NCBI GenBank assembly: GCA_028701035.1
Contig: JAQVRO010000001.1
Location: forward strand, 5,497 to 69,496
Length of the DNA: 64,000 nt
Source of the DNA: Minisyncoccota bacterium
GTDB taxonomy: Bacteria; Patescibacteriota; Minisyncoccia; Minisyncoccales; CSSED10-335
Direction of reading: 5' to 3'
Below are positions 1-61,904 of the stretch, one piece after another. The position numbers and the translations under genes were made by a program. Below the pieces are notes generated by a model that saw only the letters and a program-made list of their open reading frames with translations, was not told the origin of the DNA and searched no databases. The first letter of the stretch is position 1. Every line of letters starts with the position of its first letter.

Positions 1-2162
1 TGCTCTTTGCTTAATGGCTCAAAAAGAACAACTGAACTAAAACGATTGATAAATTCGGGCTTAAATATTGATTCTTTAAAGAAATAATTTAAAAGCTCTA
101 ACTTTAAAGACTCGGAACTAACATTATCTTTCGCGCGCTCTAGTATTAAATTACTTCCAGCATTACTGGTTGCAATGATAATGCAATTTTTAAAATCAAC
201 TCTTTGCCCCATACCATCAGTAATACTACCCTCGTCTAATACCTGCAAAAACAAATTTAAAATATCCTTGTGTGCTTTTTCTAATTCGTCTAATAATATT
301 AAAGAAAATGGCTTTTGCTTAACTTGGCTAGTAAGCAACCCCTCACTTTTAGTAGATCCTATCAACCTCTCAATATCATTAAGTGTTTGAAATTCAGACA
401 TATCAATACGAATCATATTTCTCACATCTTTAAAGTAAACCTCGGCTAAAGCTTTGGCGGTTTGAGTTTTACCAACTCCGGTGGGGCCAATAAAAAGAAA
501 TGATCCGATTGGTTTGTCGTGTGAAGAAATATCAGAACGAGACCTTCTAAGAGCTGAAGATATTTCTTTAACAGCACTGTCTTGATTGATGAGCCTTTGA
601 TGAATCAACGATTCGAGATTAACTAAAATATCCTTTTCTTGAGTATCCATCGCCCCAACTGGAATATTCATTTTACGAGAAACTATTTTCCGAATATGCT
701 CAGGCAAAAGAGTCTTTTCATTAATTTGACTAATATACATCATCGCCTCGTCAAGTAAATCTAGGGCTTTTTTAGGAAATGGCTCTTCGGGAATATATCT
801 ATCTGAACAAATAACAATCTCTTTAATGGCTTGATAAGATATAATCTTTTTATACTTAAACTCCATATTAATAGATTGTCTTTGTAAAAACATTATTGTA
901 TCTTTTTGAGATAACTCGGGCACATCTACTTTTTCAAAATACGATCCAACCGAAGAATTATTACTAATAGTTCGATACCCCTTGTAGTCAGTAATACCAA
1001 CAATAGGAAAACTATCAAAGGGAAGATAACTTGCTAATACACCAGAGACATCAACCTTACCCGGCTTTGATTCTCCAGATAAAAAATTATGAATATCGTT
1101 GATAAACAATATTGTGTTATTAGAATTAACGACTTCTTGGAATATATGATCTAGGACATTTTCTAATTCTTCACCATTTTCTACTTTAGCTATTAAAAAT
1201 GGTAAATCTAGCTCAACCACTCTTTTATGATTAAGGCCAACTAAGCTCTCAGCATAAAAACTCTTTTTTGCTAGTGCACGCATTATACAAATCCTCCCCA
1301 CTCCGGCGTCCCCAACTAATAAAACATTATTAATCCCTCCTTTGGCTAAAATTCTCTCAGTTTCTTCTATTTGTTTTGCGTGACCAATAATATCAGGAAA
1401 GTCATTTCTTTTAAAATAATCGGTCCAATTGATAGAAAACTTATCAAGCATTATCGTATAACCTGATGCCCAATCCTTAGCTAAAGATCCTTTTTTGACT
1501 AAGTTTTCCCATTTCCAAAACTTGCTTTGATTCTCAGCCCTCTTACGCATCCTATATATCCAATTGAAAACATTGCGCACATCTTCGGAATCAATATCAT
1601 AATTCTTAAAAACTTCTTTAAGTATAAAATGATTTTCTGAGGCAAAAACCAAAACATCATTTTTTTTAATTTTCACTCCCCCTCTATTCTTAGATTCGTT
1701 TAGAGAACCCTCTAGTAGTTTCCAGATATCGTCGTTATCTTTGGTTGTCTTTAATAATGCTCGCACCTCTCTAATATCAATACCTAATCTTGAAAAGACA
1801 AAAACAAAATCACTGTCCTCTAGTAAGTTGTAGAGAAACTGGCAGGTATTAGTAGAAAATGATCTAGCAACATCAAAGCTAAATAGCTCGGCAATATTAC
1901 CATTGTCTACTATTTTTGGATATTTTAATTTTACATTAAAAAAATATTCAATTTGGAAAAACAACAAAAACAAAGAGAAAGATAAAAATATTAAAGAAAC
2001 AAAATTATCATCAACAATTAAAAAGTAGAAAAGAAATATCAAGAAAAGAAGTAAAGATATTGTCTTTAATAATCGTGCCTTTCTAAAGACAACAAAGCGA
2101 TTCATTTTTACCGCGCTGTATATCGAAGAATTAACCAAATTAAATTGTTCTTTTATTGCCAT
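1..2162 (-). CDS. Clp/Hsp100-family double AAA+ ATPase (ClpA/ClpC-like), 3' end off window. It has an N-terminal two-helix membrane anchor and a degenerate first nucleotide-binding domain.
   Basis: Hand translation of the minus strand from ATG at 2162 is open to position 1. It shows a Clp N-domain-like repeat, a D1 P-loop reading GDAGVGRI (Lys to Arg, Thr to Ile) and a D1 Walker B reading FINDIH. D2 is canonical: Walker A GPTGVGKTQTAKALA, RIDMSEF, LLDELEKAH, sensor IIATSNAG. D1 to D2 spacing is about 280 aa (ClpA-like). Two hydrophobic stretches lie at residues about 35 to 75. The six-frame track did not list this ORF because it runs off the window edge. Confidence 0.7.
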   Translation of the reverse strand, partial: MAIKEQFNLVNSSIYSAVKMNRFVVFRKARLLKTISLLLFLIFLFYFLIVDDNFVSLIFLSFSLFLLFFQIEYFFNVKLKYPKIVDNGNIAELFSFDVARSFSTNTCQFLYNLLEDSDFVFVFSRLGIDIREVRALLKTTKDNDDIWKLLEGSLNESKNRGGVKIKKNDVLVFASENHFILKEVFKNYDIDSEDVRNVFNWIYRMRKRAENQSKFWKWENLVKKGSLAKDWASGYTIMLDKFSINWTDYFKRNDFPDIIGHAKQIEETERILAKGGINNVLLVGDAGVGRICIMRALAKKSFYAESLVGLNHKRVVELDLPFLIAKVENGEELENVLDHIFQEVVNSNNTILFINDIHNFLSGESKPGKVDVSGVLASYLPFDSFPIVGITDYKGYRTISNNSSVGSYFEKVDVPELSQKDTIMFLQRQSINMEFKYKKIISYQAIKEIVICSDRYIPEEPFPKKALDLLDEAMMYISQINEKTLLPEHIRKIVSRKMNIPVGAMDTQEKDILVNLESLIHQRLINQDSAVKEISSALRRSRSDISSHDKPIGSFLFIGPTGVGKTQTAKALAEVYFKDVRNMIRIDMSEFQTLNDIERLIGSTKSEGLLTSQVKQKPFSLILLDELEKAHKDILNLFLQVLDEGSITDGMGQRVDFKNCIIIATSNAGSNLILERAKDNVSSESLKLELLNYFFKESIFKPEFINRFSSVVLFEPLSKE

Positions 2163-2533
2163 ATTCCTAAAATAAAAGATAATATCATAATAAAAGGAAT
2201 TAGAATCCATGCCACGATTACTAAGCCACCCAAGAGAAACAAACTAAAACCAGAAACCACTCCAATAATAATTGTTAAAAACCTGACAAACCCACCCAGA
2301 ACCCGAGAGACAAAATTACCGAATAAAATATTAATATAATTCAATGGACCTGAGCTTCTTTCGTGAAACCAATTATAATTATGCCAATAGCAAAACATTG
2401 TTTTAAAAAGAAATCCAATAGAAAAGAAATTAAAGTTGAAAACAAGAATATCTTTAAAGGTTTTAATTATGAAAAAAGGGGCATCAACTAAATACCATTC
2501 AAACCAATTTATGATTATACTTTTTGATTTCAT
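2153..2533 (-). CDS. hypothetical small membrane protein (126 aa) immediately upstream of the Clp-like gene, probably co-transcribed with it
   Basis: ORF track entry with several hydrophobic segments (GGLVIVAWILIPFIMILSFILGIW). Its stop overlaps the downstream gene start by 10 nt. Confidence 0.4.
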   Translation of the reverse strand: MKSKSIIINWFEWYLVDAPFFIIKTFKDILVFNFNFFSIGFLFKTMFCYWHNYNWFHERSSGPLNYINILFGNFVSRVLGGFVRFLTIIIGVVSGFSLFLLGGLVIVAWILIPFIMILSFILGIWQ

Positions 2534-2647
2534 ATACTTAAAATCATTATACTTATTTTAAGGGTATTGACAAGAAAATCATCTTTCTTATAATGGCTCT
2601 TGTAAAGATAAAAGGTCGAAAACTACCTTTTTTAAAATAATAAAAAT

Positions 2648-2815
2648 ATGGTTATTGAAAAAACAATTATGCCACTTGTGGCACAAGACGAAGACGAGTT
2701 AGATGAAATAGAAGAAGATTTAGTAGAAGATGACATGGACGATGATTTACTAGATGATGATATTGACGATATAGAAGAGATAGAAGACGACCTCGAAGAC
2801 ATCACTGAAGAATAA
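2648..2815 (+). CDS. small, extremely acidic peptide (55 aa, almost entirely D/E/L/I)
   Basis: ATG at 2648 runs to TAA at 2813..2815 and is followed immediately by a strong intrinsic terminator. The antisense frame gives the Ser-rich ORF 2632..2895 in the track, which I consider a shadow ORF. Both are low complexity, so the protein-coding status itself is uncertain. Confidence 0.3.
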   Translation: MVIEKTIMPLVAQDEDELDEIEEDLVEDDMDDDLLDDDIDDIEEIEDDLEDITEE

Positions 2816-2821
2816 TTAAAA

Positions 2822-2846
2822 GACCGCCAAAAGGCGGTCTTTTTAT
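2822..2846. terminator. rho-independent terminator hairpin (GACCGCC-AAAA-GGCGGTC) flanked by A-run and T-run, likely bidirectional
   Basis: Perfect 7-bp GC-rich stem followed by TTTTT on plus and by an A-run (T-run on minus) on the other side. It sits between convergent features: the acidic peptide (+) and the histidine kinase (-). Confidence 0.6.
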
Positions 2847-2967: not shown

Positions 2968-3918
2968 TTAAAAATTACCCTCCTTTATTTTGTATTTATC
3001 TTTTGAAACATAGATCTCAAACTTTGCTCCTTTACCATGCTCGCCTACTTCTCTGATAGAGATCCCTGTTATTGATAGAATCTCCTTGCAGAGGAAAAGG
3101 CCAAGCCCGGTGTTCTTGCCGAAACCTTTATGAAATATCCTTTCTTTATCAATATCAGGAACTCCGCATCCATCATCCAACCAAGTTATGACAAGGCCTT
3201 GATCGGACTCTTTGCATTTAATACAGACCTTAGTAGCAAGGCCATGCCTTCTACTGTTATCCAGTAAGTTATAAAAAACCTTACTAATCATAGGGTCGGC
3301 ATATATTTCTATGTTGCGACAATCATATCGTATATTTCCACGAAGATTTAATATAGTGCTCTCAAGAGAAACCCATGACAGGTCCTTACCTAAGTCGTCA
3401 TAGGCCCGAGTAAATTCAACAATCTCCTGAATTCCAGAGATTGATCTAGAGACTTCTTTAAGATACCTTGAAGAAGTCTCGTCAAGGGTATCTTCTCTTA
3501 TAAAATGAAGATACCCATTGGCTGCCATGATATAATTTAAAATATCATGGCGAGTGATTTGGGATAGAATCTGCAACTTTTCATTAGCAGACCTAAGAAC
3601 CTTTCCAAGCCTCTTCTTCTCTGTCATATCTTTAACAGAGATGATCACCTCCGACTCCGATGGAAAAACTCTTATATCAAAGATTTCTCCATTTAACTCA
3701 TACTCAACAAGTTCTGATTGTTGAGCGCGAACAACTCTTGCAACAACCTCTAAGGCCATCGCGAGATCGCCCTCCGGAATAATATCCGAAAGATGTTTTC
3801 CAACAATCGGTTCATTGGAAACCATTTTTACAATGTTTCCCGCTTCGTCAGTAATAATCACAATGTCCATAAACATTCCCCGCACCAAATTGTAAAAGTG
3901 CTGGCAATAGAATGCCAT
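2968..3918 (-). CDS. cytoplasmic sensor histidine kinase with a PAS-like N-terminal domain
   Basis: H-box region ITRHDILNYI. HATPase_c motifs DDGCGVP (G1) and GLGLFLCKEI (G2). No transmembrane segment. No response regulator is nearby. Confidence 0.75.
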   Translation of the reverse strand: MAFYCQHFYNLVRGMFMDIVIITDEAGNIVKMVSNEPIVGKHLSDIIPEGDLAMALEVVARVVRAQQSELVEYELNGEIFDIRVFPSESEVIISVKDMTEKKRLGKVLRSANEKLQILSQITRHDILNYIMAANGYLHFIREDTLDETSSRYLKEVSRSISGIQEIVEFTRAYDDLGKDLSWVSLESTILNLRGNIRYDCRNIEIYADPMISKVFYNLLDNSRRHGLATKVCIKCKESDQGLVITWLDDGCGVPDIDKERIFHKGFGKNTGLGLFLCKEILSITGISIREVGEHGKGAKFEIYVSKDKYKIKEGNF

Positions 3919-4079: not shown

Positions 4080-5765
4080 ATGCAAATATTTGAATTTCAA
4101 TTTAATCCCAAAGTAAAAACCAAGAAGGTTGAGAACCTTTTTCAAGAGTTTGAATCAAGCGAACGCAACCTATATATTATTGGTGATCAAAAAAGAATCA
4201 TTCCCGGAAATGAAAAATTCTTAGCCAATATTATTAGAATGATAAAAGATGAATACGCTCTTAATGAACCAGAGAGTCACGAAAAAGCACTTCAAGAATG
4301 TTTGGTTAAAATAAACGATTACTTTAAAATTGAAATAGCTAGAGACAATATTGGCTGGATGGGTAATTTAAATCTAGTAATAGTTTCTCAATACAAAGAA
4401 GAGATCCATTTAACTAAAATGGGTAAATCAAAAGTTTATCTTTTAAAATATGAGAGTTATTCAGAATTAAATAATAAAAACAAAAAGGACTCTAGCTTTT
4501 TTGGAAGTATAATTTCTGGCAGAATGGTCTATGGCGACAGGTTGTGCGTTATATCAGAAGAATTAAACAAAATAATAGAAAAAAAGAAGGTATTAGAAGA
4601 AATAACTAAACTACCTTTCTTAGATCAAAAAATTGTAGACGAAATAATAGAACCTATTAAGAAAGATTTAGGTAAATCATCCGGCACATTCTTCCTCCTA
4701 GATAGTAAAGATAGCCCTAAGAAAAAAAATACATTAATGGAAGAGATAGAAATAGATTTTTCAATCAAAGAACTATACTATAGCATTAAAAGATTTGTTG
4801 ATAAAAAAACAAAGAAAACTCCAAAAATTGGGATTAACGAAGATCTTAAAAATCTCTTAAAGCCACTAATTGCCCTAGGATTGATACTATTAGTAGGATC
4901 TTTTGTTTTTGATAAAGAAGAAAAAGAAATAGTTAAAGAGCTAACCGTAGAAGAAAAGCTAGCTCAAATTGATATAACCAAAGAAGAATCTCTTCCTCTA
5001 TTAGCTGAATTGTATAATGAAGCGGACGACGAAACTGCCACAGAAATTCAAGAAATAATTGATTCTATGGCTAAGATATATAGAATTAATGATATTAGCA
5101 AATCAAAAGATTTTGAAGAAAATGTATCTAAAATACTTTTAAACAAATACGGCTATGACAACAACTTAGTAATATCTAGTAAAAAATATGAATCTAGTTT
5201 TCCAATAGATTTAGTGTTTGAGTTTCAAAACAGAATTCTTTTATTCTCTAAGCCAAACAAATTATTAGAGCTAAAGGATGATAAAATCACAGAACTAAAA
5301 CAACTTGAAATAGAAGCTCCCAATAACCCAACCCCCTATCTAAATAATATATACTTCACTAACAATAAAGAGATAATAAAATACGATTTAAATAATTATA
5401 CCAATTGGCTAAAATCTCCATTAAAACAATCGACCGACATTATTTCAATGTCAGTCGATGGTCATATTTGGATTTTAGATCAAGAGAATAAAATATCTAA
5501 ATATTATCTTGGCGAACATAGGGCAGATATTAATTTAAACATATTCCCAAGCTCTAAAAACTTTATTCAGATTTTAACTTCTACACAAACCGATTATATT
5601 TTTGCCTTAGATTCACTACATAATAGAATTATTGTAGCAGATAAAGACGGAAAATTAGTTAAACAAATTTGGAGCGAAAAATTTAACAACCTGAAACACA
5701 TCCAAATATCTAACAACAAACTATATATCTTAAACGAAAATACTGTTTACGAAACAACTATTTAA
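4080..5765 (+). CDS. hypothetical Lys-rich protein (561 aa) with one central transmembrane helix and a possible beta-propeller-like C-terminal region
   Basis: ORF track. Hydrophobic segment [18 protein letters not shown]. No recognisable catalytic motifs. Confidence 0.5.
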
Positions 5766-32103: not shown

Positions 32104-32370
32104 TTAAAGAATTGGTTTTACTTTTAAGAATCTACCCTCTTTGTTATTAAAAGAATTAATAATTAAATCTTTATCATCAAAATCAATTGCGACATCGTCT
32201 CTAAAAACACTACTCAAATCGCTTTGGAAATAATCTTGTTGTTTATGGGAAATATTGGCTTCCTTTAAATCATCTACATAATCTAAAACGATAGCGATAT
32301 CTTTTCTTAAATCTTCTTCCTCTTTTGGATCAAAGCTTATTCTTGCTAAATTAGAAAGTTTTTTAATCAT
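32104..32370 (-). CDS. gatC: glutamyl-tRNA(Gln) amidotransferase subunit C
   Basis: 88 aa, immediately upstream of gatA. N-terminus MIKKLSNLARISFDPKEEEDL is GatC-like. Confidence 0.75.
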   Translation of the reverse strand: MIKKLSNLARISFDPKEEEDLRKDIAIVLDYVDDLKEANISHKQQDYFQSDLSSVFRDDVAIDFDDKDLIINSFNNKEGRFLKVKPIL

Positions 32371-33437
32371 TATCTTGGAGTTTCAATCGTATCAGTGTCA
32401 ACTAATACTTCTTGAAGTTCGTCTATATTTTCTAATACGAAACCTGCGCCACGAGCAACAGCAGTTAAAGGATCGTCCACAATAGTTGTTTTAATTTTTG
32501 TTTCTTGCGTAATTAATGTGTCTAATCCCTTTAATAAACTTCCACCACCCATAAGAAATATTCCTTTATTCATAATATCAGCCAAAAGTTCGGGTGGTGT
32601 TTCTTCAACAATCATTTTTATAGTTGAAACAATTTCTTTTACCGACTTTTCCATCGCCTTCCTGGCATTTTTGTCATTAATAATTATCTCTTCGGGCAAC
32701 CCACTTACCAAATTTCTACCTCTAATCGGCATCTCTAGTTTATCTTTAAGTGGATAAGCCGATCCAATATTAATCTTAACATTTTCTGCGGTTCTTTCTC
32801 CAATTAATAGCTTGTACTCCTCTTGAGCAAATTTAATAATATCTTCGTTAAGTCTGTCTCCAGCAACTCTTAAACTTTTAGCAACCACAATACCTCCTAA
32901 AGATATTACCGCAACCTCGGTAGTTCCTCCACCGATATCTACAACGAAATTACCACCGGCATCTTGGACTGGTAAGCGTGCTCCAATAGCTGAAGCCATT
33001 GGCTCCTCAATAAGATAAACAACGCTAGCTCCGGCACTTATACCTGCGTCTTGAACTGCCTTCCTCTCTACCTCAGTTACACCAACAGGGATACCAACTA
33101 TTAATCTTGGTCTAAAGCTAAAAGGAAATTTTCTTTGATATGCTTTATCAATAAAATAACGAAGCATTTGTTCGGTTACTTCAAAGTCAGAAACAACTCC
33201 AGAAACCAAAGGCCTAGTCGCCACAATATGGGCTGGAGTTTTTCCAACCATTCTTTTGGCTTCTTCACCAATTGATAAAATCTGACCCGTTTTTTGATTT
33301 ACCGCAACTACCGAAGGTTCAGAGATTATAATACCACGACCTCGCACATAAACTAAAGAATTAGCTGTTCCTAGGTCTATAGCAATATCGGTAGAAAATT
33401 TATTCAAGCTATCAGATAAAAATTTGTTTTTAAACAT
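32370..33437 (-). CDS. mreB: actin-like rod-shape protein MreB (paralog 1)
   Basis: Actin fold phosphate-1 motif IAIDLGTANSLVYV and adenosine motif. 355 aa. Confidence 0.85.
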   Translation of the reverse strand: MFKNKFLSDSLNKFSTDIAIDLGTANSLVYVRGRGIIISEPSVVAVNQKTGQILSIGEEAKRMVGKTPAHIVATRPLVSGVVSDFEVTEQMLRYFIDKAYQRKFPFSFRPRLIVGIPVGVTEVERKAVQDAGISAGASVVYLIEEPMASAIGARLPVQDAGGNFVVDIGGGTTEVAVISLGGIVVAKSLRVAGDRLNEDIIKFAQEEYKLLIGERTAENVKINIGSAYPLKDKLEMPIRGRNLVSGLPEEIIINDKNARKAMEKSVKEIVSTIKMIVEETPPELLADIMNKGIFLMGGGSLLKGLDTLITQETKIKTTIVDDPLTAVARGAGFVLENIDELQEVLVDTDTIETPR

Positions 33438-35940: not shown

Positions 35941-36948
35941 TTATTTCTTAATCATTATACTTCTCTTATAGGCATCAATGTGATCCAATACCTCGCTAGT
36001 TCCCTTGGCGACGCAAACAAGTGGATCTTCGGCAATAAAACAAGGAACTCCTGTGCTCTCAGAAATCAAAACATCTATTTCTCTTAATAGTGCTCCTCCA
36101 CCAGCAACAACCATACCTTTGTCCATAATATCAGCTGAGAGCTCGGGCGGTGTATCTCGCAAAACCTGGCGAATGGCTTTAATCATTTCGTCTAGCGTCC
36201 CCTCCATTGCCTCGGCAACCTCATTAGAGCTAACATCAATATTTCTTGGCAAACCCAAGATAAGGTCTCGCCCCCTTACATTCATAGTCATTTCTTCTTT
36301 TACTGGAACTGCGGTTCCTATCTTAATTTTAATATCCTCGGCAGTTTGAATTCCAATAGCCAACTTATACTTCTTTTTTATATACTCTACTATAGACTCA
36401 TCAAGTTTATCTCCAGCTGTTCTTAGAGAGTAATATGTTACAATACCACCTAGGGATAATACTGCCACCTCTGAAGTTCCTCCACCAATATCAACAATCA
36501 TATGACCTGAGCAAGAGTTAATTGGTATACCGGCTCCAATAGCAGCCAAAACTGGCTCTTTAGTTAGGTAAACATTTTTAGCACCAGCTAGAGTGCCTGC
36601 TTCAATTACTGCTCTCTTCTCTGTTGATGTAATGCCAGCAGGAACACCAACAACTAAATCGGGTTTGAAAAAACTCCAACGCCCCAAACTCTTCTCAATA
36701 AAATAGCGAAGCATTGCCTCGGTAATCTTATACTCGGCAATGACGCCATCTCTCAGTGGACGATATACTTTTATAGTATCAGGAGTTCGGCCAATCATTT
36801 TTTTGGCCTCAGCACCAACAGCCATAACCTTGTTTTCTAAAACAGAAACAGCCACAACAGATGGCTCGTTAATAACAACACCTTTTCCCGGCACAAAAGC
36901 TAGTGAATTACATGTTCCTAAATCTATTCCAATTTTTCTTACAAACAT
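35941..36948 (-). CDS. mreB: actin-like rod-shape protein MreB (paralog 2)
   Basis: IGIDLGTCNSLAFV and an overall MreB pattern. 335 aa. Confidence 0.8.
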   Translation of the reverse strand: MFVRKIGIDLGTCNSLAFVPGKGVVINEPSVVAVSVLENKVMAVGAEAKKMIGRTPDTIKVYRPLRDGVIAEYKITEAMLRYFIEKSLGRWSFFKPDLVVGVPAGITSTEKRAVIEAGTLAGAKNVYLTKEPVLAAIGAGIPINSCSGHMIVDIGGGTSEVAVLSLGGIVTYYSLRTAGDKLDESIVEYIKKKYKLAIGIQTAEDIKIKIGTAVPVKEEMTMNVRGRDLILGLPRNIDVSSNEVAEAMEGTLDEMIKAIRQVLRDTPPELSADIMDKGMVVAGGGALLREIDVLISESTGVPCFIAEDPLVCVAKGTSEVLDHIDAYKRSIMIKK

Positions 36949-48995: not shown

Positions 48996-50858
48996 TTATT
49001 CTATAATAGTTTCTTCTAATAATAAATCTTCCTCTGAATCTTCCCCTGACTCTTCCTCTGGCTCATTAATATTAATAACTTCTATGTGTTCTTCGTTTGC
49101 CCAGCCCTCAAAACCTGCTACCTTTAGTTTATACCAAATATCAATTTTTTGCAACAATTCTATTTCATCTTCTACCGTTGCAACATATAAAACTTCGCTC
49201 CTCTCTCCCGGCAAAGCATAGATGTTTATGCCACTTTCAATAAACTCTTCTCTTATCTTAACCAGCAACTCTTCTTTATCTTTTTCTAAATAAAACTGAG
49301 TCATTACTCTGTGTTTTAATGGAACCATTGGTGCAGGGACAGGCAAAAGCACAAGATAAAGTATTGATAACGATAAAAGAAATATACCTGATAGAGCTAC
49401 AATTAACGAAGCCATCAAAACAGATTTTTGCTTACCTTGTTGAGTTTTAATCTCTTTTGCCTTTACTTCAGATGGCAAAAGGTTTATTCCATCTCTTACT
49501 GGATCTTCTGCGCCCCCTCTCAGGGCAAGACCAATAACATTAGAATATATTACTCCTTTAGTATCATCAAGATTACTCGTATCTTTAATTTTAGTTAAAG
49601 GATTGCCAATTTCAACTTTATTCCCAAAGAACTTTTGGAAAAACAAATCAATTTCTGGCAACAGCGCCGAGCCTCCAGCTAGAATAATCCTTTTAATATC
49701 CTTCTTGAATTCTTTCTTATAAAAAGACTCTGCTTCTTTAGCTTCGTTCACTATCCTTACGGCTTCTTTTTCAATTACCGAGTAGAACTGTGTTTGGCTC
49801 TTAAAACCATCCCTTACCTTTATTTCTTCAGCTTTATCTTTAGCTATATTCAAACTATCAGCAATTTTTTGTGTAAAATTAAAACCAGCTACAGGCACAG
49901 AAACAGCGAAACATATCGCACCAGCACTATCGTATACAGATATAATAGTGCTCTTTGCTCCAATATCTAAAATCATCGTATCCTCTATCTCGTCTTTTTT
50001 AACAACTTCTTTCTTCTTTTTAAATACACTTTTCTTGTTCTTGTTTTCTTCAGCAATAGGATCGTAAACCTTTCTTAATAACCCTCGCCCAGTAGCAAAA
50101 GACTCAACATCTAGAGCAACCGGCGTAATATTGGCTGCTCTTAAAAAATAAATATAGTTATCAACAACATCTTTATCTACCGCAACACAAATTACATCTA
50201 TCTGATTCTCTTTTTCTTGATTAGTAATCTTTAAGAAGTCCCAAGATATCTTCTTTAAAGGTAAAGGTATCGTTGTTTCTATCTTCTTAGTTAGCGCGTT
50301 ATAAAAGTTTTCTTTTGCATCTATTTGAAAATGATATATGTATGTTTTGCTCTCTGGTAAGCTAATAATCGCCTTTAGCTCTTTTATCTCTTCGGCAATC
50401 AAAGGAAATGGTTTTGTTTCTTTTAGAGTTTTGTTTAAGATGCTTATTAATTCCTTTTGGTTCTTGATATCCCCATCTTCCACAATACCTTCTGGTAATA
50501 TGGCTCTACCATAAGAGACAATTTTGCCTTGCCTGTTTAACTGCATTATCTCTATTGAGTGGTCACTTACATCTATACCAACGACTGGTTGCTTAGTGAC
50601 ATCTAATAAATCACTAACAACTTGAGATTGCCTAATTTTAGCCAACTGCAACTTCCAACCTTCATTAGGTTTTTCTTTTTTAATTTCTTTGCTTTGCTTA
50701 ATAATCTCGTTTATAATCTGAGTTGGGTTGGCGCCTCTTTTCTGGGCCTGCTCTAACAAAGCTTTCTTTTCTGGATTTGATTCAATTATCTTCTTTAATA
50801 TTAAATCATCTCCGGCTCCTCTTTCTCTAGCTTTTTTAATTGTTTCTTCTATTGACAT
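48996..50858 (-). CDS. PilM-like actin-fold pilus assembly protein fused to a C-terminal TM segment and a PilN/PilO-like periplasmic domain. About 100 aa of N-terminal extension.
   Basis: VGIDVSDHSIEIMQL and later actin-like ATPase segments. TM helix LMASLIVALSGIFLLSLSILYLVLL. C-terminal domain similar to the 48632 ORF. Confidence 0.5.
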   Translation of the reverse strand: MSIEETIKKARERGAGDDLILKKIIESNPEKKALLEQAQKRGANPTQIINEIIKQSKEIKKEKPNEGWKLQLAKIRQSQVVSDLLDVTKQPVVGIDVSDHSIEIMQLNRQGKIVSYGRAILPEGIVEDGDIKNQKELISILNKTLKETKPFPLIAEEIKELKAIISLPESKTYIYHFQIDAKENFYNALTKKIETTIPLPLKKISWDFLKITNQEKENQIDVICVAVDKDVVDNYIYFLRAANITPVALDVESFATGRGLLRKVYDPIAEENKNKKSVFKKKKEVVKKDEIEDTMILDIGAKSTIISVYDSAGAICFAVSVPVAGFNFTQKIADSLNIAKDKAEEIKVRDGFKSQTQFYSVIEKEAVRIVNEAKEAESFYKKEFKKDIKRIILAGGSALLPEIDLFFQKFFGNKVEIGNPLTKIKDTSNLDDTKGVIYSNVIGLALRGGAEDPVRDGINLLPSEVKAKEIKTQQGKQKSVLMASLIVALSGIFLLSLSILYLVLLPVPAPMVPLKHRVMTQFYLEKDKEELLVKIREEFIESGINIYALPGERSEVLYVATVEDEIELLQKIDIWYKLKVAGFEGWANEEHIEVININEPEEESGEDSEEDLLLEETIIE

Positions 50859-54078: not shown

Positions 54079-54927
54079 TCAACACACATAGTATCTTCCC
54101 CTATCCTTCTTCACAATTCCTTTTAAGCAAAGAATAGAAAGCGTCGTGTTCGTCTGTGAAATATTCATCTCTATAATCTTACAAATACTGTTTGCATCCA
54201 TCGCTTCGCTTTTCAAAACATCAAAAACTTTCTTTTCGTTTTCTGAAAGTCCTTCTACTTTTTTTGCACTTCTTTTCTCTGAGCTTTTATTAAAAAAAGA
54301 AAGTATTTCTTCTGCTGAAAGAACACTCTTGGCCAATCCTTCTTTGATAATTCTGTTTGTCCCTTGTGATGTGGGATTAAATATAGAACCAGGGACGGCA
54401 AAAAGTTTTCTTTTGTATTTAACTGCTAAATTCACCGAAATAAGTGTTCCGCTTTTTTCTTCTGCTTCAACGGCAAGCACTGCTTTTGAAAGTCCAACAA
54501 CAATCCTATTTCTTTTTGGATAAGTCCACTTGCTAGGAGGGTATCCGTTATCAAACTCAGAAAGAATAAGACCCTTCTCTTCTATCTCTTTGTAAAGATC
54601 TCTTTGATAAGCAGGATGAATAACATCAACCCCACACGGCATAACAGCAATTGTTTTTCCACCCACACTTAACGCTGCACGGTGTGCCGCCGCATCAACG
54701 CCATACATAAATCCAGAAACAATAGTCACTCCTTCTTTAGCAACCTTTGAAACAATTTCCTCAACAACTCTCTTGCCATAACTAGTTATTCTCCTTGAAC
54801 CAACAACCGCCAAAGTATCACTAAAAATACTCTCATCAAAATCCCCTCTATAATTCAAAGCAACAGGAGCATCCTCAATCCCCTTTAAAATACTAGGATA
54901 GTTTTTATTATCAAGAAATATCTTCAT
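54079..54927 (-). CDS. dprA: DNA processing protein A (Smf)
   Basis: Rossmann-like core LAVVGSRRITSYGKRV...GVDAAAH and a C-terminal winged-helix domain. Confidence 0.8.
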   Translation of the reverse strand: MKIFLDNKNYPSILKGIEDAPVALNYRGDFDESIFSDTLAVVGSRRITSYGKRVVEEIVSKVAKEGVTIVSGFMYGVDAAAHRAALSVGGKTIAVMPCGVDVIHPAYQRDLYKEIEEKGLILSEFDNGYPPSKWTYPKRNRIVVGLSKAVLAVEAEEKSGTLISVNLAVKYKRKLFAVPGSIFNPTSQGTNRIIKEGLAKSVLSAEEILSFFNKSSEKRSAKKVEGLSENEKKVFDVLKSEAMDANSICKIIEMNISQTNTTLSILCLKGIVKKDRGRYYVC

Positions 54928-55267
54928 AATGCGTAATTCTCTCTACTCCCCCATTATTATTTAGCACAATACAAATCAAATCTATTCTGTATTGCCCCTT
55001 GTAGTTTTTTCTTTGAGCGTATCCTAATGCCCCTCTTCTTAATCTCCTTGTCTTATCTTTTTTGATTGTTTCTTCTGGACTACCAAATCTTTCGCTAGTT
55101 TTTGTTCTTACTTCCACAAAAACAAGCTCATCATCTTTACTAGCAACAATATCAATTTCTACATATTCTGTTTTGTAATTCCTTTCTAAGATCTGAAAGT
55201 CATTCTTTTGTAAGTATTCACAAGCAATATCTTCTCCTTTTATTCCTACATCTTGTTTGTTATGCAT
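54911..55267 (-). CDS. yraN: YraN family endonuclease (UPF0102, PD-(D/E)xK fold)
   Basis: GIKGEDIACEYL...ILERNYK...EIDIVA...VFVEVRT. Confidence 0.7.
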   Translation of the reverse strand: MHNKQDVGIKGEDIACEYLQKNDFQILERNYKTEYVEIDIVASKDDELVFVEVRTKTSERFGSPEETIKKDKTRRLRRGALGYAQRKNYKGQYRIDLICIVLNNNGGVERITHYEDIS

Positions 55268-55278
55268 TATAATCGTTA

Positions 55279-56805
55279 CTATTTTCTCGGTTCATCTAGG
55301 CGATACTGCAACGCCTCAGCAATATGCTCTATTTTTATTTCTTCACTTCGACCAAGATCAGCAATTGTTCGCGCAACTTTTATTACTTTAAAATATGCTC
55401 TCGCAGACAAGTGAAACTCCAACGAAGCACTGACTAAAACATCCTCTACTTCTTTAGATAAAGAAGCATACTTTTCTATCTGCTTGTTCTTCATTTCAGA
55501 GTTTGTAAAAATATTTTCCTCTTTAAACCTCTCTTTCTGTAATTCTCTTGCTTTCTCAACTCTCTTTCTTATCTCTTTTGACTTTTCATTATTTGCCCTC
55601 TTCTTTTCTTCCGCAGTTAATTTTTTAGTTTCTACATCGGGAACCTCTATATGAATATCAATCCGATCAAGCATCGGGCCAGAAACTCTTTTCCTATACC
55701 TTTCAACTTCTCTCTCAGTGCAACTACACTGTTTCTTTTCACTGTTAAGATATCCACAAGGGCAGGGATTAGCAGCAGCAACAAACATATATCGTGCGGG
55801 ATAAACAACACTCTCAATACTTCTTGAAATATTTACATATCCGTTCTCCATCGGTTGTCTTAGAGCTTCCAACGCCGATCTTTGAAACTCGTTTAGCTCA
55901 TCTAAAAACAATACTCCTCTATGGGCAAGTGTCACTTCTCCGGGCCGAGGACGAGTTCCTCCGCCAGTAAGTCCAATTGAAGATATCGTGTGATGTGGAG
56001 CACGAAAAGGACGATTTTGAATAAGCGAACTTCCCGGAGGCAGATTGCCAGAAACAGAATATATCTTTGTTACTTCAATTGACTCTTCTTCATTTAATTT
56101 TGGGAGAATCCCCGAAAAAGCTCTTGCAAGCATTGTTTTCCCACTTCCCGGACCACCAATCATAAACAAATTATGCCCTCCCGCTGCCGCTATCTCTAAG
56201 GCTCTCTTTGCTTCTTCTTGTCCTAAAACTTCTTCCATATCAAACTCACAGAAAAAATCCTCCTTCTGTTTCTTGTACTTCGCTCTTTCCGGCTGTTCCC
56301 TTCCACTTAAAAATGCTGTTAATTGCGAAAGATCTTTTACTGGATAAACATTTACTCCCGCCACTACCGACGCCTCGTTAGCCGAAAGCATAGGAAGAAA
56401 TATATTTTTGTATCCGTTTTCTTTTGCAAAAAGAGCAAGTGGAAGCGCTCCTTTTGTATGCCTCAACTCTCCATTTAAAGAAAGCTCTCCAAAGAACAAA
56501 CTTTTTTCAGGAATGGTTAAATTTAAAACCGAAGCAATAATTCCAGTAGCTATCGGCAGATCATAACAAGAACCATCTTTGGGAACATCAGCTGGAGCAA
56601 GGTTAACAATTATTCTCCTTCTGGGAAACTCTATTTTTGAGTTGCTTATTCCCGCCCGAACTCGCTCCTTACTCTCATCAACAACCTTCGCTGGAAGTCC
56701 AACAATATCAAAACTGGGAAGCCCCTTCTTCATCACATTGACTTCCACATCAACCCCAATAGAATTAAGGCCTAAATGAGCGACAGATGGTATCTTAATA
56801 AACAT
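55279..56805 (-). CDS. comM: Mg-chelatase-like AAA+ ATPase YifB/ComM
   Basis: N-terminal Lon-like domain, Walker A GGPGSGKTMLA, Walker B LFLDELNEF, and a C-terminal Mg-chelatase subunit ChlI domain. Confidence 0.85.
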   Translation of the reverse strand: MFIKIPSVAHLGLNSIGVDVEVNVMKKGLPSFDIVGLPAKVVDESKERVRAGISNSKIEFPRRRIIVNLAPADVPKDGSCYDLPIATGIIASVLNLTIPEKSLFFGELSLNGELRHTKGALPLALFAKENGYKNIFLPMLSANEASVVAGVNVYPVKDLSQLTAFLSGREQPERAKYKKQKEDFFCEFDMEEVLGQEEAKRALEIAAAGGHNLFMIGGPGSGKTMLARAFSGILPKLNEEESIEVTKIYSVSGNLPPGSSLIQNRPFRAPHHTISSIGLTGGGTRPRPGEVTLAHRGVLFLDELNEFQRSALEALRQPMENGYVNISRSIESVVYPARYMFVAAANPCPCGYLNSEKKQCSCTEREVERYRKRVSGPMLDRIDIHIEVPDVETKKLTAEEKKRANNEKSKEIRKRVEKARELQKERFKEENIFTNSEMKNKQIEKYASLSKEVEDVLVSASLEFHLSARAYFKVIKVARTIADLGRSEEIKIEHIAEALQYRLDEPRK

Positions 56806-56968
56806 AATACAATTTGATTAAATTCTAACAAATATAATACAATTATTAATACTTATTTAATCTCTATACTTCGCTTAATTAAGGCGCCTGGCGCCTTAAT
56901 CTAACCTCCTTAATTTATACTTCGCTTAATTAAGGCGCCTGGCGCCTTAATCTGAACTCCTTAATACT

Positions 56969-57640
56969 TTAATCCTTTTCTATTAAATATTTATCTATAT
57001 CTTTTTTATTACGGCTTTCCTCAATCACCATTTTGACAAACTTTTTATACTCCACTACCGAATTTGACCCTTGTGCTTCAGAAAAATGATCAAGAATAAT
57101 GTCTTTACTCGCAACCAAATCGTCTGGCCTTTCTCCTAAGAAATATCCATAGCTTGTCCATGGATAATCTTCAACATCAGCTATTTTATGAATTTGTGAA
57201 TTACCATTGATATAGGCAGACAGCCAAAGAAGATAATCATCATTATCAATATGAATTGCTTTGTAAGCTCCTTGGAATAATCTACCTGGGCGATTGTATT
57301 TTTTATTAATAAAATTAGTATAGCTGTGTCCTATTTTGTGTAAAAATTTAGAAATACCATCATCGGTTAATTGTTGTAATATCAAATGATAATGATTAGG
57401 TAATAAATTATAAGCATTTATTGTGACTATTTTTTCTAATCCCTCTAAGAAGGAGCTTAGCTCCTTAATATCTTTACGAGCCACAGATGCCCTTTCTTCG
57501 TAATAAGATTTATTATTAAAATCCTTTAAGCCTCTTTTAAACATTTTATAATCTTCGTCTTCTCTAAAAAGCAATGAATCAGCTACAGCTCGATTATAAA
57601 CATGATAGTATTCACCATTGGTAAATTTTATTTTTCTCAT
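56969..57640 (-). CDS. REP-associated tyrosine transposase (RAYT; IS200/IS605-like Y1 HuH transposase)
   Basis: N-terminal YHVYNRA motif, HuH motif LPNHYHLILQ, downstream conserved Tyr region RLFQGAYKAIHID. 223 aa. Flanked by REPs. Confidence 0.7.
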   Translation of the reverse strand: MRKIKFTNGEYYHVYNRAVADSLLFREDEDYKMFKRGLKDFNNKSYYEERASVARKDIKELSSFLEGLEKIVTINAYNLLPNHYHLILQQLTDDGISKFLHKIGHSYTNFINKKYNRPGRLFQGAYKAIHIDNDDYLLWLSAYINGNSQIHKIADVEDYPWTSYGYFLGERPDDLVASKDIILDHFSEAQGSNSVVEYKKFVKMVIEESRNKKDIDKYLIEKD

Positions 57641-57849: not shown

Positions 57850-59547
57850 TTATTTGGTGGTCCAGGTGGGGCCGTCTCCAACAGGTAAGAGGGTTCCGTG
57901 GTTGTCGTTTCCGCTTCTGTCGTAGGCGGTTTCGCCTTGACCTTCGTTTAATGGCCAGTGGCCAACGAGGCCGTTTCTGATATCGTAGCCTTTGTAGAGT
58001 TGCTCTACTTCTTCTGCAGAGAGAGCTCGGTTGTATATACGGACATCGTCGATAAGACCGTCCCAAAAATAAATATCAATACCCCCCACTCTTAAAGGTC
58101 CTACTATATCAATACTTGTAGAATCGACCCTACTTCCTATAAAAGAATTGTCAATAAATAGATTTGCATTAGATCCATTTCTAGAAAAAAATAAATAATG
58201 CCACTCTCCATCATTGTAATTCTCAGTTGTTGTTATTCTATTCGTACCTCCCCCCATCCAATAAACCCAAACTCCGTAAGGCTCATTATTAAAATTAAAA
58301 GATATATTATTAGCACTATAACTTGATCCAAAATTTAAAGCATGCATCCTCTTATTTGATATTTCGCTTTTAAACCAGAAACCAACCGAAAGATTATTTG
58401 TCCCAAAATCCCAGGCAGAATCATTCGGAATATTCGCATAATCGTTAGTGCCGTCGAAGTTTAGGGCGATTTCGGGGGCGCCGGTGGAAACTTCTTTGGT
58501 TTCGTCTTCAGTGGATTTTAAGGAAATGTTTTTGGTGACGGGGTTTTGCCAAATGGTATATTTGCTAGAATATTCGTAGTTGTATAGGTCTTGGATTTCT
58601 TCTGCTGATAGTGCTCGGTTATAGATGCGGACATCGTCGATAAGACCTTCCCATGACTGAGTTGTACTCCCTGGAAGGACTTGCCCAAATACATCATTTT
58701 CAGTATTATCGCCTAAAGTATCCAGAGATCCTGTTTCAGTTCCAGTTAAATTGCCATTTTTATAAGCTTTATAGGTTGTGCCATTTTTTACCCATGTAAT
58801 GTGTGTCCACTCATTTTCGGAGATAGTTCCAAAGTTTCCTCCTGTCCAGATGTCAATCCAATTACTGCCGGAGCCACTATAAAAAGAAATATTCTCTCCG
58901 TATATACCGACATAAAGAACCCCTTCCTTAGAAAATACTCTGTGATGTCCTGATGAAATTGGAGTCTTTACCCATGCTCCCAAAGACACCTCTGTTAAGT
59001 TGCTAGGGATTTTTACATCTCCTAAATCAATATAATCGTTATCTCCATCAAAATCTAAAGCTTCGCCCATTTTACCATCTACCCATGTAGGCCCATTAAA
59101 CAAAGTCCCATGGTTTTCGTTGCCACTGGCGTCATAGGCAGTTGTTCCACTTCCCTCGTCGAACTTCCAGTGTCCAACAAGCCCATCGGTAATATTACTT
59201 CCAGATATACTTCCCTCTTTTGGATCAACTAAATACTTACTTAAGTAGTTTGGTTTTAAGCAATCATACAAGTCATACTCTCCTGGGCCTGTGCCGATTG
59301 CAGTAAACTTATCTTGTGGAAGTGGTCCACTAGGACAATTCCAACCTCTATCGTTTTTTACTTTCTGTTGCACAGAGAGTAATATACTATTTAAATCTGA
59401 TTCTCTTTGAGAATCTCTTTGCGCTTTGATTTTTCCTACTGGGTCTACTGCTACCACAAAGAAAACTCCAAATATTATCATAACGCCAACGACAATCAAT
59501 AGCTCTATATATGTAAACCCTTTTGTTTTGTATAAATATTCTTTCAT
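57850..59547 (-). CDS. pilin-like protein with type IV pilin N-terminus and two LamG (concanavalin-like, Laminin_G_3) domains. The 3' end appears truncated by REP insertion.
   Basis: KGFTYIELLIVVGVMIIF. Two copies of GLVGHW..EGSG..AYD.SGN.NHGTL....W.......DFDG.NDY and LIDDVRIYNRALSAEE. The gene ends ...GPTWTTK, and its TAA stop is the first triplet of the REP tail. Confidence 0.7.
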   Translation of the reverse strand: MKEYLYKTKGFTYIELLIVVGVMIIFGVFFVVAVDPVGKIKAQRDSQRESDLNSILLSVQQKVKNDRGWNCPSGPLPQDKFTAIGTGPGEYDLYDCLKPNYLSKYLVDPKEGSISGSNITDGLVGHWKFDEGSGTTAYDASGNENHGTLFNGPTWVDGKMGEALDFDGDNDYIDLGDVKIPSNLTEVSLGAWVKTPISSGHHRVFSKEGVLYVGIYGENISFYSGSGSNWIDIWTGGNFGTISENEWTHITWVKNGTTYKAYKNGNLTGTETGSLDTLGDNTENDVFGQVLPGSTTQSWEGLIDDVRIYNRALSAEEIQDLYNYEYSSKYTIWQNPVTKNISLKSTEDETKEVSTGAPEIALNFDGTNDYANIPNDSAWDFGTNNLSVGFWFKSEISNKRMHALNFGSSYSANNISFNFNNEPYGVWVYWMGGGTNRITTTENYNDGEWHYLFFSRNGSNANLFIDNSFIGSRVDSTSIDIVGPLRVGGIDIYFWDGLIDDVRIYNRALSAEEVEQLYKGYDIRNGLVGHWPLNEGQGETAYDRSGNDNHGTLLPVGDGPTWTTK

Positions 59548-59551
59548 ATTA

Positions 59552-60799
59552 TTAATATGGTTTTGTACTTTCGTATAATAACTTTACTTCGCTTGGAGAC
59601 AAAGCTCGGTTGTATATACGAACATCGTCGATTTGTCCGTTGAAATAATCGACCAGAGAAGACCCGATTAACAATGGATAATTATTATTTATATTATATG
59701 GCCCTGTGCCTGTTTTTCTGATTGTTGTTAGTGACTTAGACTCCCCATCAACATAAACATAATGATTATCCCCTTTTCTTATAGCAACAACATTGTGCCA
59801 ATTACCATCTATAATGTCATCAGTTGTATACAGACGCACTTCATTGTCTGTGTCAGCTCGAACCCACCAACTTATTTTTTTTGATTCACTATGAACTCCA
59901 CCGAATGTCACTGTACCAATATAAATACTAACAAAATTGTATGGATCTATGGACTGTCTTTTTAATACAAGGCCCGCTATCTGGTCATTATTCAGTGCTA
60001 AAAACCATAACGATATTGACAAATCACTTATATTTGGTCTTAATTCAGGAGTATCTCCAATCTCCACATAATCCCCAACTCCATCAAACTCCAGTGCTCT
60101 ATCTTCTTCAAAAAACCTATTCTCCGACCAATCTGGTGCTCCAACTAATGTTCCATGATTATCGTTTCCACTAAAGTCATAGGCTGTTAGTCCTTTACCT
60201 TCGTTAAATGTCCAGTGGCCTACAAGTCCATCTGTTAAAAGCTTATCCGAAGGCTTTGAATTCTTGGCTCTTAAAGTATAAGCAGATATGAATTGGTCTG
60301 AAAAGTCATATTCTGGATAATTCTGCGGATTATAATACGAGGCTCCAATGGTTATTTGTACCGAACCAGGATCTTTAGGAAGACCAACATTTCTAAAGGT
60401 AAGACTATCAATCACTATACTTGATGCTGTTATTTTCTCCTGAGGATAACCTGCCACCTTCATTACAATAGCTCCGTCTTCAAGCCAAAAGAGAACTGGA
60501 TCGTTTTCATTGTTTGTTCTAAGCCATAACATATTTCCTGTTCTACCAGGTAATACTATCGTATCTGCATTCCTTATCTCTGCACCAATCTTTTGCATTG
60601 CAAAACGAACATTGTATGTTACCTCTTCTACAATTTCAGAATTAGAACTAGATGATAAAACATTGACTGCAATACCACCCATAGCCAAAAGAATACCCGA
60701 AAGAAGAAATGTATAAACAAGAAACTCAATAAAAGTAAAGCCTCTCTCCCTTTTCTTATTTAAATTATATTCTTTTAGAATCATAGTATTACCTAACAA
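59552..60799 (-). CDS. pilin-like protein with LamG domain (paralog 2)
   Basis: RGFTFIEFLV prepilin motif. GLVGHWTFNEGKGLTAYDFSGNDNHGTL...FDGVGDYVEIG...IDDVRIYNRALSPSEV. Confidence 0.7.
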   Translation of the reverse strand: MLGNTMILKEYNLNKKRERGFTFIEFLVYTFLLSGILLAMGGIAVNVLSSSSNSEIVEEVTYNVRFAMQKIGAEIRNADTIVLPGRTGNMLWLRTNNENDPVLFWLEDGAIVMKVAGYPQEKITASSIVIDSLTFRNVGLPKDPGSVQITIGASYYNPQNYPEYDFSDQFISAYTLRAKNSKPSDKLLTDGLVGHWTFNEGKGLTAYDFSGNDNHGTLVGAPDWSENRFFEEDRALEFDGVGDYVEIGDTPELRPNISDLSISLWFLALNNDQIAGLVLKRQSIDPYNFVSIYIGTVTFGGVHSESKKISWWVRADTDNEVRLYTTDDIIDGNWHNVVAIRKGDNHYVYVDGESKSLTTIRKTGTGPYNINNNYPLLIGSSLVDYFNGQIDDVRIYNRALSPSEVKLLYESTKPY

Positions 60800-61892: not shown

Positions 61893-61904
61893 ATTTTAGT
61901 GATA

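Follow-up and report, generated by a model that had tools for sequence, protein, structure and literature searches.

Hsp100 proteins serve as the textbook example of machines that thread their substrates by means of aromatic pore loops. In this superfamily the aromatic loops apply the pulling force and are crucial for activity, with the second ATPase ring, AAA2, serving as the main threading motor through an essential pore loop (PMC8129007). The gene described here encodes a Clp/Hsp100-like ATPase and lies at the left edge of a 64,000-nucleotide (nt) stretch of DNA, hereafter the window, from a Minisyncoccota bacterium of the Patescibacteriota (GenBank assembly GCA_028701035.1, contig JAQVRO010000001.1, positions 5,497 to 69,496). 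Directly upstream, on the same strand, stands a small gene for a membrane protein of 126 residues. By its fold and by its second AAA+ module (D2), the ATPase belongs to the Hsp100 superfamily; however, it lacks the features that define ClpB, ClpA/ClpC/ClpE or ClpV, and has neither an active first AAA+ module (D1) nor aromatic pore loops. Its sequence and that of its relatives would fit a D2-driven, non-threading membrane remodeller that works with the small partner, an interpretation to which we give about even credence.

Compared with ClpB and Hsp104, the ATPase has the same order of domains, namely a putative N-domain, D1, D2 and a C-terminal small domain, a D2 core that is 40-50% identical with Walker A and B, sensor 1, arginine finger and sensor 2 (GAR) in common, and likewise no ClpP-docking loop. 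It differs from them in its N-terminal membrane hairpin, the missing coiled coil of the M-domain, the degenerate D1, the loss of the pore-loop tyrosine in both D1 and D2, a D2 loop shortened by six residues and the pairing with a small membrane protein (68 of 73 species). With ClpA, ClpC and ClpE it shares the double AAA+ arrangement, the short D1-D2 spacing of ClpA and, as best structural matches in Foldseek, ClpC chains; unlike these proteins it has no ClpP loop of the IGL or VGF type, no ClpC M-domain, no intact D1 and no pore loops, and the membrane hairpin occupies the place of the N-terminal zinc finger of ClpE.

More distant systems offer parallels of principle. In NSF (D2) and Pex1/Pex6 (D1), one conserved, non-hydrolysing ring serves as scaffold and the other ring as motor, although these proteins come from another AAA+ clade and have retained pore loops in their motor rings. 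FtsH and Msp1 resemble the ATPase in that an N-terminal anchor tethers a hexameric AAA+ ring to the membrane on its cytoplasmic side; both, however, are single rings of the classical AAA clade with aromatic pore loops, FtsH in addition carries an M41 protease domain, and none of this applies here. The nearest precedent is Torsin, which is related to the D2 of Clp/Hsp100 proteins, associates with membranes through a hydrophobic N-terminus, has no aromatic pore loops and works with membrane cofactors (PMC5425593). The ATPase shares membrane association and the missing aromatic loops with the eukaryotic Torsin-LAP1/LULL1 system, which makes Torsin an analogy of principle, not a statement of membership: Torsin consists of one AAA+ module, relies on its cofactor for the arginine finger and resides in the lumen of the endoplasmic reticulum, whereas the present protein has two modules and is cytoplasmic, and its small partner, unlike the Torsin cofactors, shows no AAA-like fold. 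A full-text literature search, with most subscription journals outside its coverage, returned no description of a membrane-anchored Hsp100 in Patescibacteria.

Hsp100 fold, membrane anchor and small partner

The elements of the two genes are as follows (window coordinates; aa, amino acid residues of the ATPase).

1..2162, minus strand: Clp/Hsp100-like ATPase gene, clipped by the window start; aa 1-720 of 808 are read from nt 3-2162, and nt 1-2 are a partial codon
2088..2162, minus strand: conserved cytoplasmic N-terminal motif, aa 1-25 (MAIKEQFNLVNSSIY...), from the family alignment
2016..2078, minus strand: transmembrane helix 1, aa 29-49, from hydropathy, AlphaFold2 and positive-inside charges
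1926..2009, minus strand: transmembrane helix 2, aa 52-79, from the same three sources
1524..1910, minus strand: divergent helical domain resembling the Clp N-domain, aa 85-213, from the family profile and Foldseek
1428..1523, minus strand: family-specific linker rich in Trp and Lys, aa 214-245 (KFWKWENLVKKGSLAKDWASGYTIMLDKFSIN), from the family alignment
663..1427, minus strand: D1, the first AAA+ module, aa 246-500, catalytically degenerate yet conserved
1290..1313, minus strand: D1 P-loop GDAGVGRI, Walker A Lys replaced by Arg and Thr by Ile, from the translation
1164..1199, minus strand: D1 pore-loop site FLIAKVENGEEL, with Asn at the position of ClpB Tyr251
1089..1115, minus strand: D1 Walker B TILFINDIH, DE replaced by ND (FINDIH itself at 1089..1106)
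933..953, minus strand: D1 arginine-finger site SVGSYFE, where ClpB has ALERRFQ; both Arg lost
3..581, minus strand: D2, the second AAA+ module, aa 528-720 with the rest beyond the window; catalytic motifs intact
465..488, minus strand: D2 Walker A GPTGVGKT, from the translation and family alignment
330..368, minus strand: truncated D2 pore loop RLIGSTKSEGLLT, against RLVGAPPGYVGYEEGGYLT in ClpB; six residues deleted, no aromatic
279..302, minus strand: D2 Walker B LILLDELE, with D625 and E626 invariant in the family
2153..2533, minus strand: small-gene membrane protein, open reading frame (ORF) of 126 aa from the ORF list; stop codon TAA at 2155..2153
2546..2573, minus strand: promoter-like site TTGTCA-16-TATAAT, 11 of 12 consensus positions matched; consensus match only

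Translation of 1..2201 on the minus strand gave a single open frame, which runs without interruption over all 2160 nt of the ATPase gene; the full-length protein has 808 residues. The same 720 residues were found in an independent assembly (locus L088), the pair of ATPase and small gene was identical in independent assemblies of three sequencing runs, and the ATPase sequence is also contained in an NCBI genome assembled from a metagenome (protein MDD4062162.1). A sequence-only reading of this DNA had named sequencing errors as a possible source of the unusual Walker motifs. This source is excluded, as the substitutions recur in the three independently assembled runs, in the NCBI metagenome genome and in relatives at 84-89% identity. 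It had likewise considered a start codon downstream of the hydrophobic region, for which we found no support: both candidate starts lie upstream of the helices, so that both hydrophobic segments are included with either one. The start is most likely ATG 2162 (MAIKEQFNL...; MAIKEQFNLVNS...), because a 99%-identical protein (P0001) and MDD4062162.1 begin there and because the 25 residues ahead of the first helix form a conserved family motif. ATG 2105 was rejected, since starting there would drop the 19 preceding residues, which the family conserves and the database proteins include.

Three lines of evidence agree that the ATPase begins with two hydrophobic helices, as the sequence-only reading had proposed. 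The two segments reach mean Kyte-Doolittle hydropathies of 2.57 and 2.08 over 19-residue stretches, AlphaFold2 placed helices at 29-49 and 52-79 (whole-model predicted local distance difference test (pLDDT) 85.6, predicted template modelling score (pTM) 0.71), and the charge pattern in 106 relatives, with lysine plus arginine counts of 4.3 before helix 1, 0.9 in the loop and 3.9 after helix 2, was that of a hairpin. Because basic residues cluster before helix 1 and after helix 2 and not in the loop, both ends of the hairpin face the cytoplasm. The outside loop between the helices is very short (DD). The N-terminal two-helix hairpin thus holds the cytoplasmic body of the protein at the inner face of the membrane. 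Ahead of it, the family consensus of the cytoplasmic motif reads MxxFNFNLKKAxIYQAVKW, with F7 and I14 nearly invariant.

The region behind the hairpin had been described as a clear N-domain repeat, which was overstated. Pfam Clp_N did not match the window ATPase at E<=0.01, in a test that was also made with a 23-sequence family alignment, and precomputed Clp_N annotations exist for 21 of the best 120 listed relatives. A Clp-N-like domain is nevertheless weakly recognizable: searched against the PDB, the family N-domain profile gave weak matches to Clp N-domains in 20 of 25 matches (E 1.3e-3 to 0.9), namely those of HSP101, ClpV, Hsp104, ClpC, ClpA and ClpB. The adjoining Trp/Lys-rich linker (GSLAKEWxxGYT) is more conserved than the N-domain, at 58% pairwise identity, and its core was the pattern that recovered the family in a genome collection.

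The class-I Clp/Hsp100 double-AAA+ architecture proposed for the remainder is supported. Pfam detected AAA_2 (4.5e-46), AAA (5.8e-17) and AAA_lid_9 (7.6e-9) in the window ATPase, with the ClpB_D2-small domain present in full-length relatives; a PDB sequence match to ClpB reached 9e-110; and Foldseek, run with the predicted model, returned ClpC and ClpB at about 1e-49 to 1e-37 (ClpC chains best, at 5.8e-49), aligning about 820 columns to full-length ClpC. Assignment to a described member of the superfamily failed, as the NCBIfam scores were about a third of the respective cut-offs: 367.5 versus 1232.1 for ClpB (TIGR03346, with the match split in two), 343.7 versus 993 for ClpA (TIGR02639, with the match in one stretch) and 305.8 versus 885 for ClpV (TIGR03345). 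The M-domain, needed for the partnership of ClpB with Hsp70 (PMC8129007), is absent; ClpB residues of about 427-473, part of the M-domain region, have no counterpart in the alignment. The sequence-only reading had advised looking for a ClpP-docking IGF/L loop. No member (0 of 107) carried an [ILVM]G[FLM] tripeptide between sensor 1 and the PEF motif, and the segment that bears this tripeptide in ClpA and ClpC is ClpB-like and predicted to be helical in the family.

Family breadth was assessed in several ways. A search with the full protein found more than 300 relatives, of which the best 120 were listed, almost all of 800-890 residues; the source names among these 120 were all Patescibacteria (Parcubacteria, Minisyncoccales, Nealsonbacteria, Paceibacterota). 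With the N-terminal 241 residues alone as query, 84 cluster representatives were retrieved from a protein library of 1.84 billion entries, and the full-length ones examined retain hydrophobic segments at the N-terminus along with a canonical Walker A in D2. Scanning one genome per species with the linker-core pattern yielded 122 confirmed loci, the best 80 of which were kept and all came from records labelled as Patescibacteria groups, including some titled 'Saccharibacteria' by record label only. The complete genomes CP179887.1 and CP179888.1 are among those that carry the module. More than 100 relatives (44-89% identity) and 72 species share the architecture of the window protein. Motif counts by species below refer to these 72 species with a full-length gene, and motif columns aligned with ClpB to 115 full-length relatives. 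The window protein has the proposed family features, that is the N-terminal motif, hairpin, linker, short D2 loop and upstream small gene; its D1 P-loop, ending in GRI, deviates. Source records annotate the family as ClpC, ClpE, 'AAA family ATPase' or 'Clp protease ATP-binding subunit'.

The small protein begins with 85 residues rich in Arg, Lys and aromatics and ends in a hydrophobic region of 40 residues, midway through which stands an invariant Gly. AlphaFold2 (pLDDT 88) predicted one helix at residues 6-36 and a long one at 63-125, and the likely arrangement would be a membrane-proximal half in the cytoplasm with a membrane hairpin behind it. Within the hydrophobic C-terminal region, more than 90% of the family carry a Glu (GLLxEIF); the window protein has a Gly at position 95. 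The protein matched neither Pfam nor NCBIfam, and Foldseek found no similar structure in the PDB. Its family comprises at least 1386 clusters, all annotated 'hypothetical' and free of Pfam domains, and every source name given for it points to Patescibacteria.

The link between the ATPase and the upstream membrane protein, which the sequence-only reading had raised as a possibility, finds support in the conservation of their gene order. Of the 73 species with enough upstream sequence, 68 have the small gene immediately ahead of the ATPase gene in the same orientation, usually overlapping it; the gap is at most 80 nt, or the genes overlap, in 64 of these 68. In the window, the stop codon of the small gene falls 10 nt inside the ATPase frame, and such an overlap commonly marks operons whose genes are translationally coupled; the promoter-like site, a pattern match only, stands 13 nt upstream of the small gene's ATG. 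As far as searched, ATPase and small gene form a two-gene module specific to Patescibacteria.

Degenerate D1 and shortened D2 pore loop

Translation and HMMER alignment to E. coli ClpB, which placed GDAGVGRI on GEPGVGKT and FINDIH on FIDELH, bore out the D1 P-loop and Walker B sequences reported earlier. The view of D1 as a pseudo-ATPase gains further support from two losses that had gone unmentioned, those of the arginine fingers and of the pore-loop tyrosine. At the Walker A Lys position, Arg is found in 100 of 115 relatives; counted by species, it is Arg in 58 of 72 and Lys in 12. The following Thr position retains Thr in two of 72 species and holds Lys or Arg in 63, and the DE of Walker B is retained in 27. 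In place of the arginine fingers (ERRF in ClpB), the window protein has SY and most members SL or NL. The column of the pore-loop Tyr, among 115 relatives, contains Asn (37), Ser (33), Asp (21), Thr (15) or Gly (5) in 111 cases, with no aromatic among these, and the D1 loop as a whole occurs in 64 sequence variants in 72 species.

Mean pairwise identity was 57% for D1, 73% for D2 and 45% for the N-domain, and the alignments indicate that D1, like all other domains, is under purifying selection. Judging from the few distant members that keep GKT or GKS, the inactivation of D1 appears to have happened within the family. The clade of the window protein (GRV or GRI) appears to stand at the degenerate end, its GRI P-loop being further degenerated than the GRK type of the family.

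D2 had been called fully canonical, which holds for its catalytic motifs and not for its pore loop. Walker A reads GP[TS]GVGKT in 72 of 72 species, and sensor 1 (TSN), the arginine finger (PEFINRF, with R707 invariant) and, beyond the window, sensor 2 (GAR) are likewise intact and invariant in the family. The pore loop, in contrast, comprises seven residues versus 13 in ClpB, the six-residue deletion removing GYVG, and is shorter by the same six residues than in ClpA and ClpC. It is seven residues long in 64 of 72 species and ten in the other eight, carries an aromatic residue in five species and occurs in 55 sequence variants. The designation of the protein as an unfoldase is accordingly doubtful: neither ring has an aromatic pore loop, and the loop of the only catalytic ring is short and variable.

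Gene neighbourhood and other features of the window

Across the family, 49 of 53 species have mraZ no more than 4.7 kb downstream of the ATPase gene; in the five loci with called genes that were viewed, rsmH, an ftsL-sized gene and ftsI come after it. Between the ATPase gene and mraZ stand one to four variable genes, in the window's organism those for a CAP-domain protein and a sortase. Synteny extends upstream, where trmD, def, yceG, DJ-1, L10 and L12 are also common to the loci. The neighbours of the ATPase are thus ribosomal, CAP, sortase and dcw genes, not a type VI secretion context. The fixed place just ahead of the mraZ-rsmH-ftsL-ftsI cluster suggests, as a hint from gene order alone, a role in the envelope or in division.

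Divergently from the ATPase/small-gene pair, the window encodes a 55-residue acidic ORF with 30 Asp or Glu residues (2648..2815, plus strand; MVIEKTIMPLVAQ followed by an acidic tail). It is preceded by a promoter-like site at 2567..2594 (12 of 12 matches) and followed by a terminator-like hairpin at 2818..2843, a palindromic stem-loop that the scan reports on the minus strand. Similar acidic ORFs with an N-terminus of the form MxxEK..P.. occupy the same divergent position in ten of 62 species loci and are called as a gene in loci L001 and L088. Between the acidic ORF and a 561-residue ORF lies the gene of a histidine-kinase-like protein of 316 residues (2968..3918, minus strand), with HATPase_c as its only Pfam match and no evident membrane segment; the Minisyncoccales locus L001 has a Na/Ca exchanger there instead. 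The 561-residue ORF (4080..5765, plus strand) has no Pfam match and converges on the L7/L12 gene, overlapping its 3' end by 8 nt. At its position, L001 has a 614-residue ORF, also without a Pfam match.

Farther along the window, two MreB paralogues (32370..33437 and 35941..36948, both minus strand; Pfam E each near 1e-133) lie about 2.5 kb apart and enclose genes for an M50 (RseP-like) protease, ribosome recycling factor and the delta' subunit of DNA polymerase III. Four Laminin_G_3 (concanavalin-like) genes follow one another at 57850..63998 (minus strand), near a PilM-like protein (48996..50858) and a 992-residue TPR protein. As one of the four carries an N-terminal pilin-type methylation motif (N_methyl), the sequence suggests that these proteins may be pilus-associated or surface adhesins. 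The region 54079..57640 (minus strand) holds competence-related genes, namely DprA (54079..54927) and a ComM-like AAA+ protein of the Mg-chelatase type (55279..56805), adjoined by an ORF resembling an IS200-type Y1 transposase (56969..57640).

Possible modes of action

The reading we favour, a non-threading remodeller, combines the features above as follows. D2 would be the sole motor, while D1, which would not hydrolyse ATP, would serve as a scaffold or a regulatory ring. Driven by ATP, the ring movements would remodel a partner on the cytoplasmic side of the membrane, or assemble or release it, and the likeliest target would be the co-encoded small protein or something that the small protein recruits. 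Processive threading would not be expected, as both rings lack the canonical means of gripping a polypeptide. In a more specific form, the pair may be a bacterial counterpart of the Torsin-cofactor principle, in which D2 hydrolysis on a fixed D1 scaffold would drive the assembly or disassembly of a membrane complex around the small partner, as a core envelope or division function of Patescibacteria; this analogy we offer as speculative and on balance unlikely. FtsEX-like signalling, with ATP powering a signal through the membrane to a target beyond it, was set aside, since both proteins expose few residues outside the cell. Action on secreted substrates, suggested by the sequence-only reading, is unsupported on the same ground, as both proteins expose almost nothing there.

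Several observations weigh against a non-threading remodeller. The missing aromatic pore loop is itself negative evidence. A subclade at about 55% identity has a Tyr in its short D2 loop (YEG), and the conserved LLT that follows this loop could contact substrate, as could the aliphatic residue (I, L or V) that most members carry two positions before the lost D1 Tyr. D1 may be active in the part of the family with GKT or GKS in the P-loop, and the two consecutive basic residues found there in most members (GRK, GKR, GKK) might still bind nucleotide or another anion. Five of the 73 species (loci L028, L031, L038, L068 and L077) showed no small gene in the upstream region even by tblastn, and the synteny with mraZ and L10/L12 may be inherited gene order without functional meaning. 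The Torsin analogy is limited in that D2 keeps its own arginine finger.

In the main rival, essentially the idea of the sequence-only reading, the ATPase would truly unfold or extract by threading, pulling membrane proteins from the bilayer, as FtsH and Msp1 do, through a non-canonical pore and with the small protein as adaptor or substrate gate. The anchor position points the D1 face and the N-domain, that is the substrate-entry side of Hsp100 proteins, towards the membrane, the ATPase site of D2 is fully intact, conservation extends to the partner gene, and the Tyr of the one subclade and the aliphatics near both loops could provide some grip. However, aromatics are missing from both pore loops in the great majority of members, the D2 loop is shorter than in ClpB, ClpA and ClpC, and the number of loop variants (64 for D1 and 55 for D2) speaks of poor conservation at a site that, for AAA2, is essential for threading in characterized Hsp100 proteins (PMC8129007). 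We therefore regard threading as rather unlikely, though well worth bearing in mind.

The described Hsp100 roles fit far less well, because the protein has no ClpP loop, no M-domain and no pore loops. A function as the ATPase partner of ClpP, in the manner of ClpC, ClpE or ClpA, is what the source annotation 'ATP-dependent Clp protease ATP-binding subunit ClpC/ClpE' implies, and the D1-D2 spacing does resemble that of ClpA; this stands against the missing docking tripeptide in 107 of 107 members, with a ClpB-like, predicted helical segment in its place, the ClpA score of 344 versus a cut-off of 993, the loss of the pore loops and the finding that Pfam detected no ClpP or ClpX domain in the 53 ORFs scanned, out of 58 in the window with 120 or more residues. 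Such a role is very improbable. Hardly more credible is a disaggregase of the ClpB type with a chance location at the membrane: D2 of ClpB does give the best sequence matches, and the region of the ClpP-docking loop is ClpB-like, but the ATPase lacks both the M-domain through which ClpB partners with Hsp70 (PMC8129007) and the pore-loop tyrosines, its D1 is inactive and its TIGR03346 score is far below the cut-off. An artefact or decaying gene, through a wrong start, sequencing errors or pseudogene formation, has nothing in its favour beyond the unusual motifs and is negligibly probable, given the identical sequence in three independent assemblies and the NCBI metagenome genome, the open frame of 2160 nt, purifying selection on all domains and the same architecture in more than 100 relatives and 72 species.

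Together, these findings describe a large, conserved bacterial family with an Hsp100 fold and an intact D2 site. In it, the pore loops, M-domain, ClpP loop and catalysis by D1 have been lost, whereas a membrane anchor and a conserved partner in the membrane have been added. The label ClpC, ClpE or 'Clp protease ATP-binding subunit' under which it is filed in the source records viewed probably misleads metabolic and proteostasis reconstructions. If the non-threading reading is true, the family would represent a second way for the Hsp100 fold to operate in bacteria, and it would point to an unstudied core function in Patescibacteria, whose tiny genomes keep little without need.

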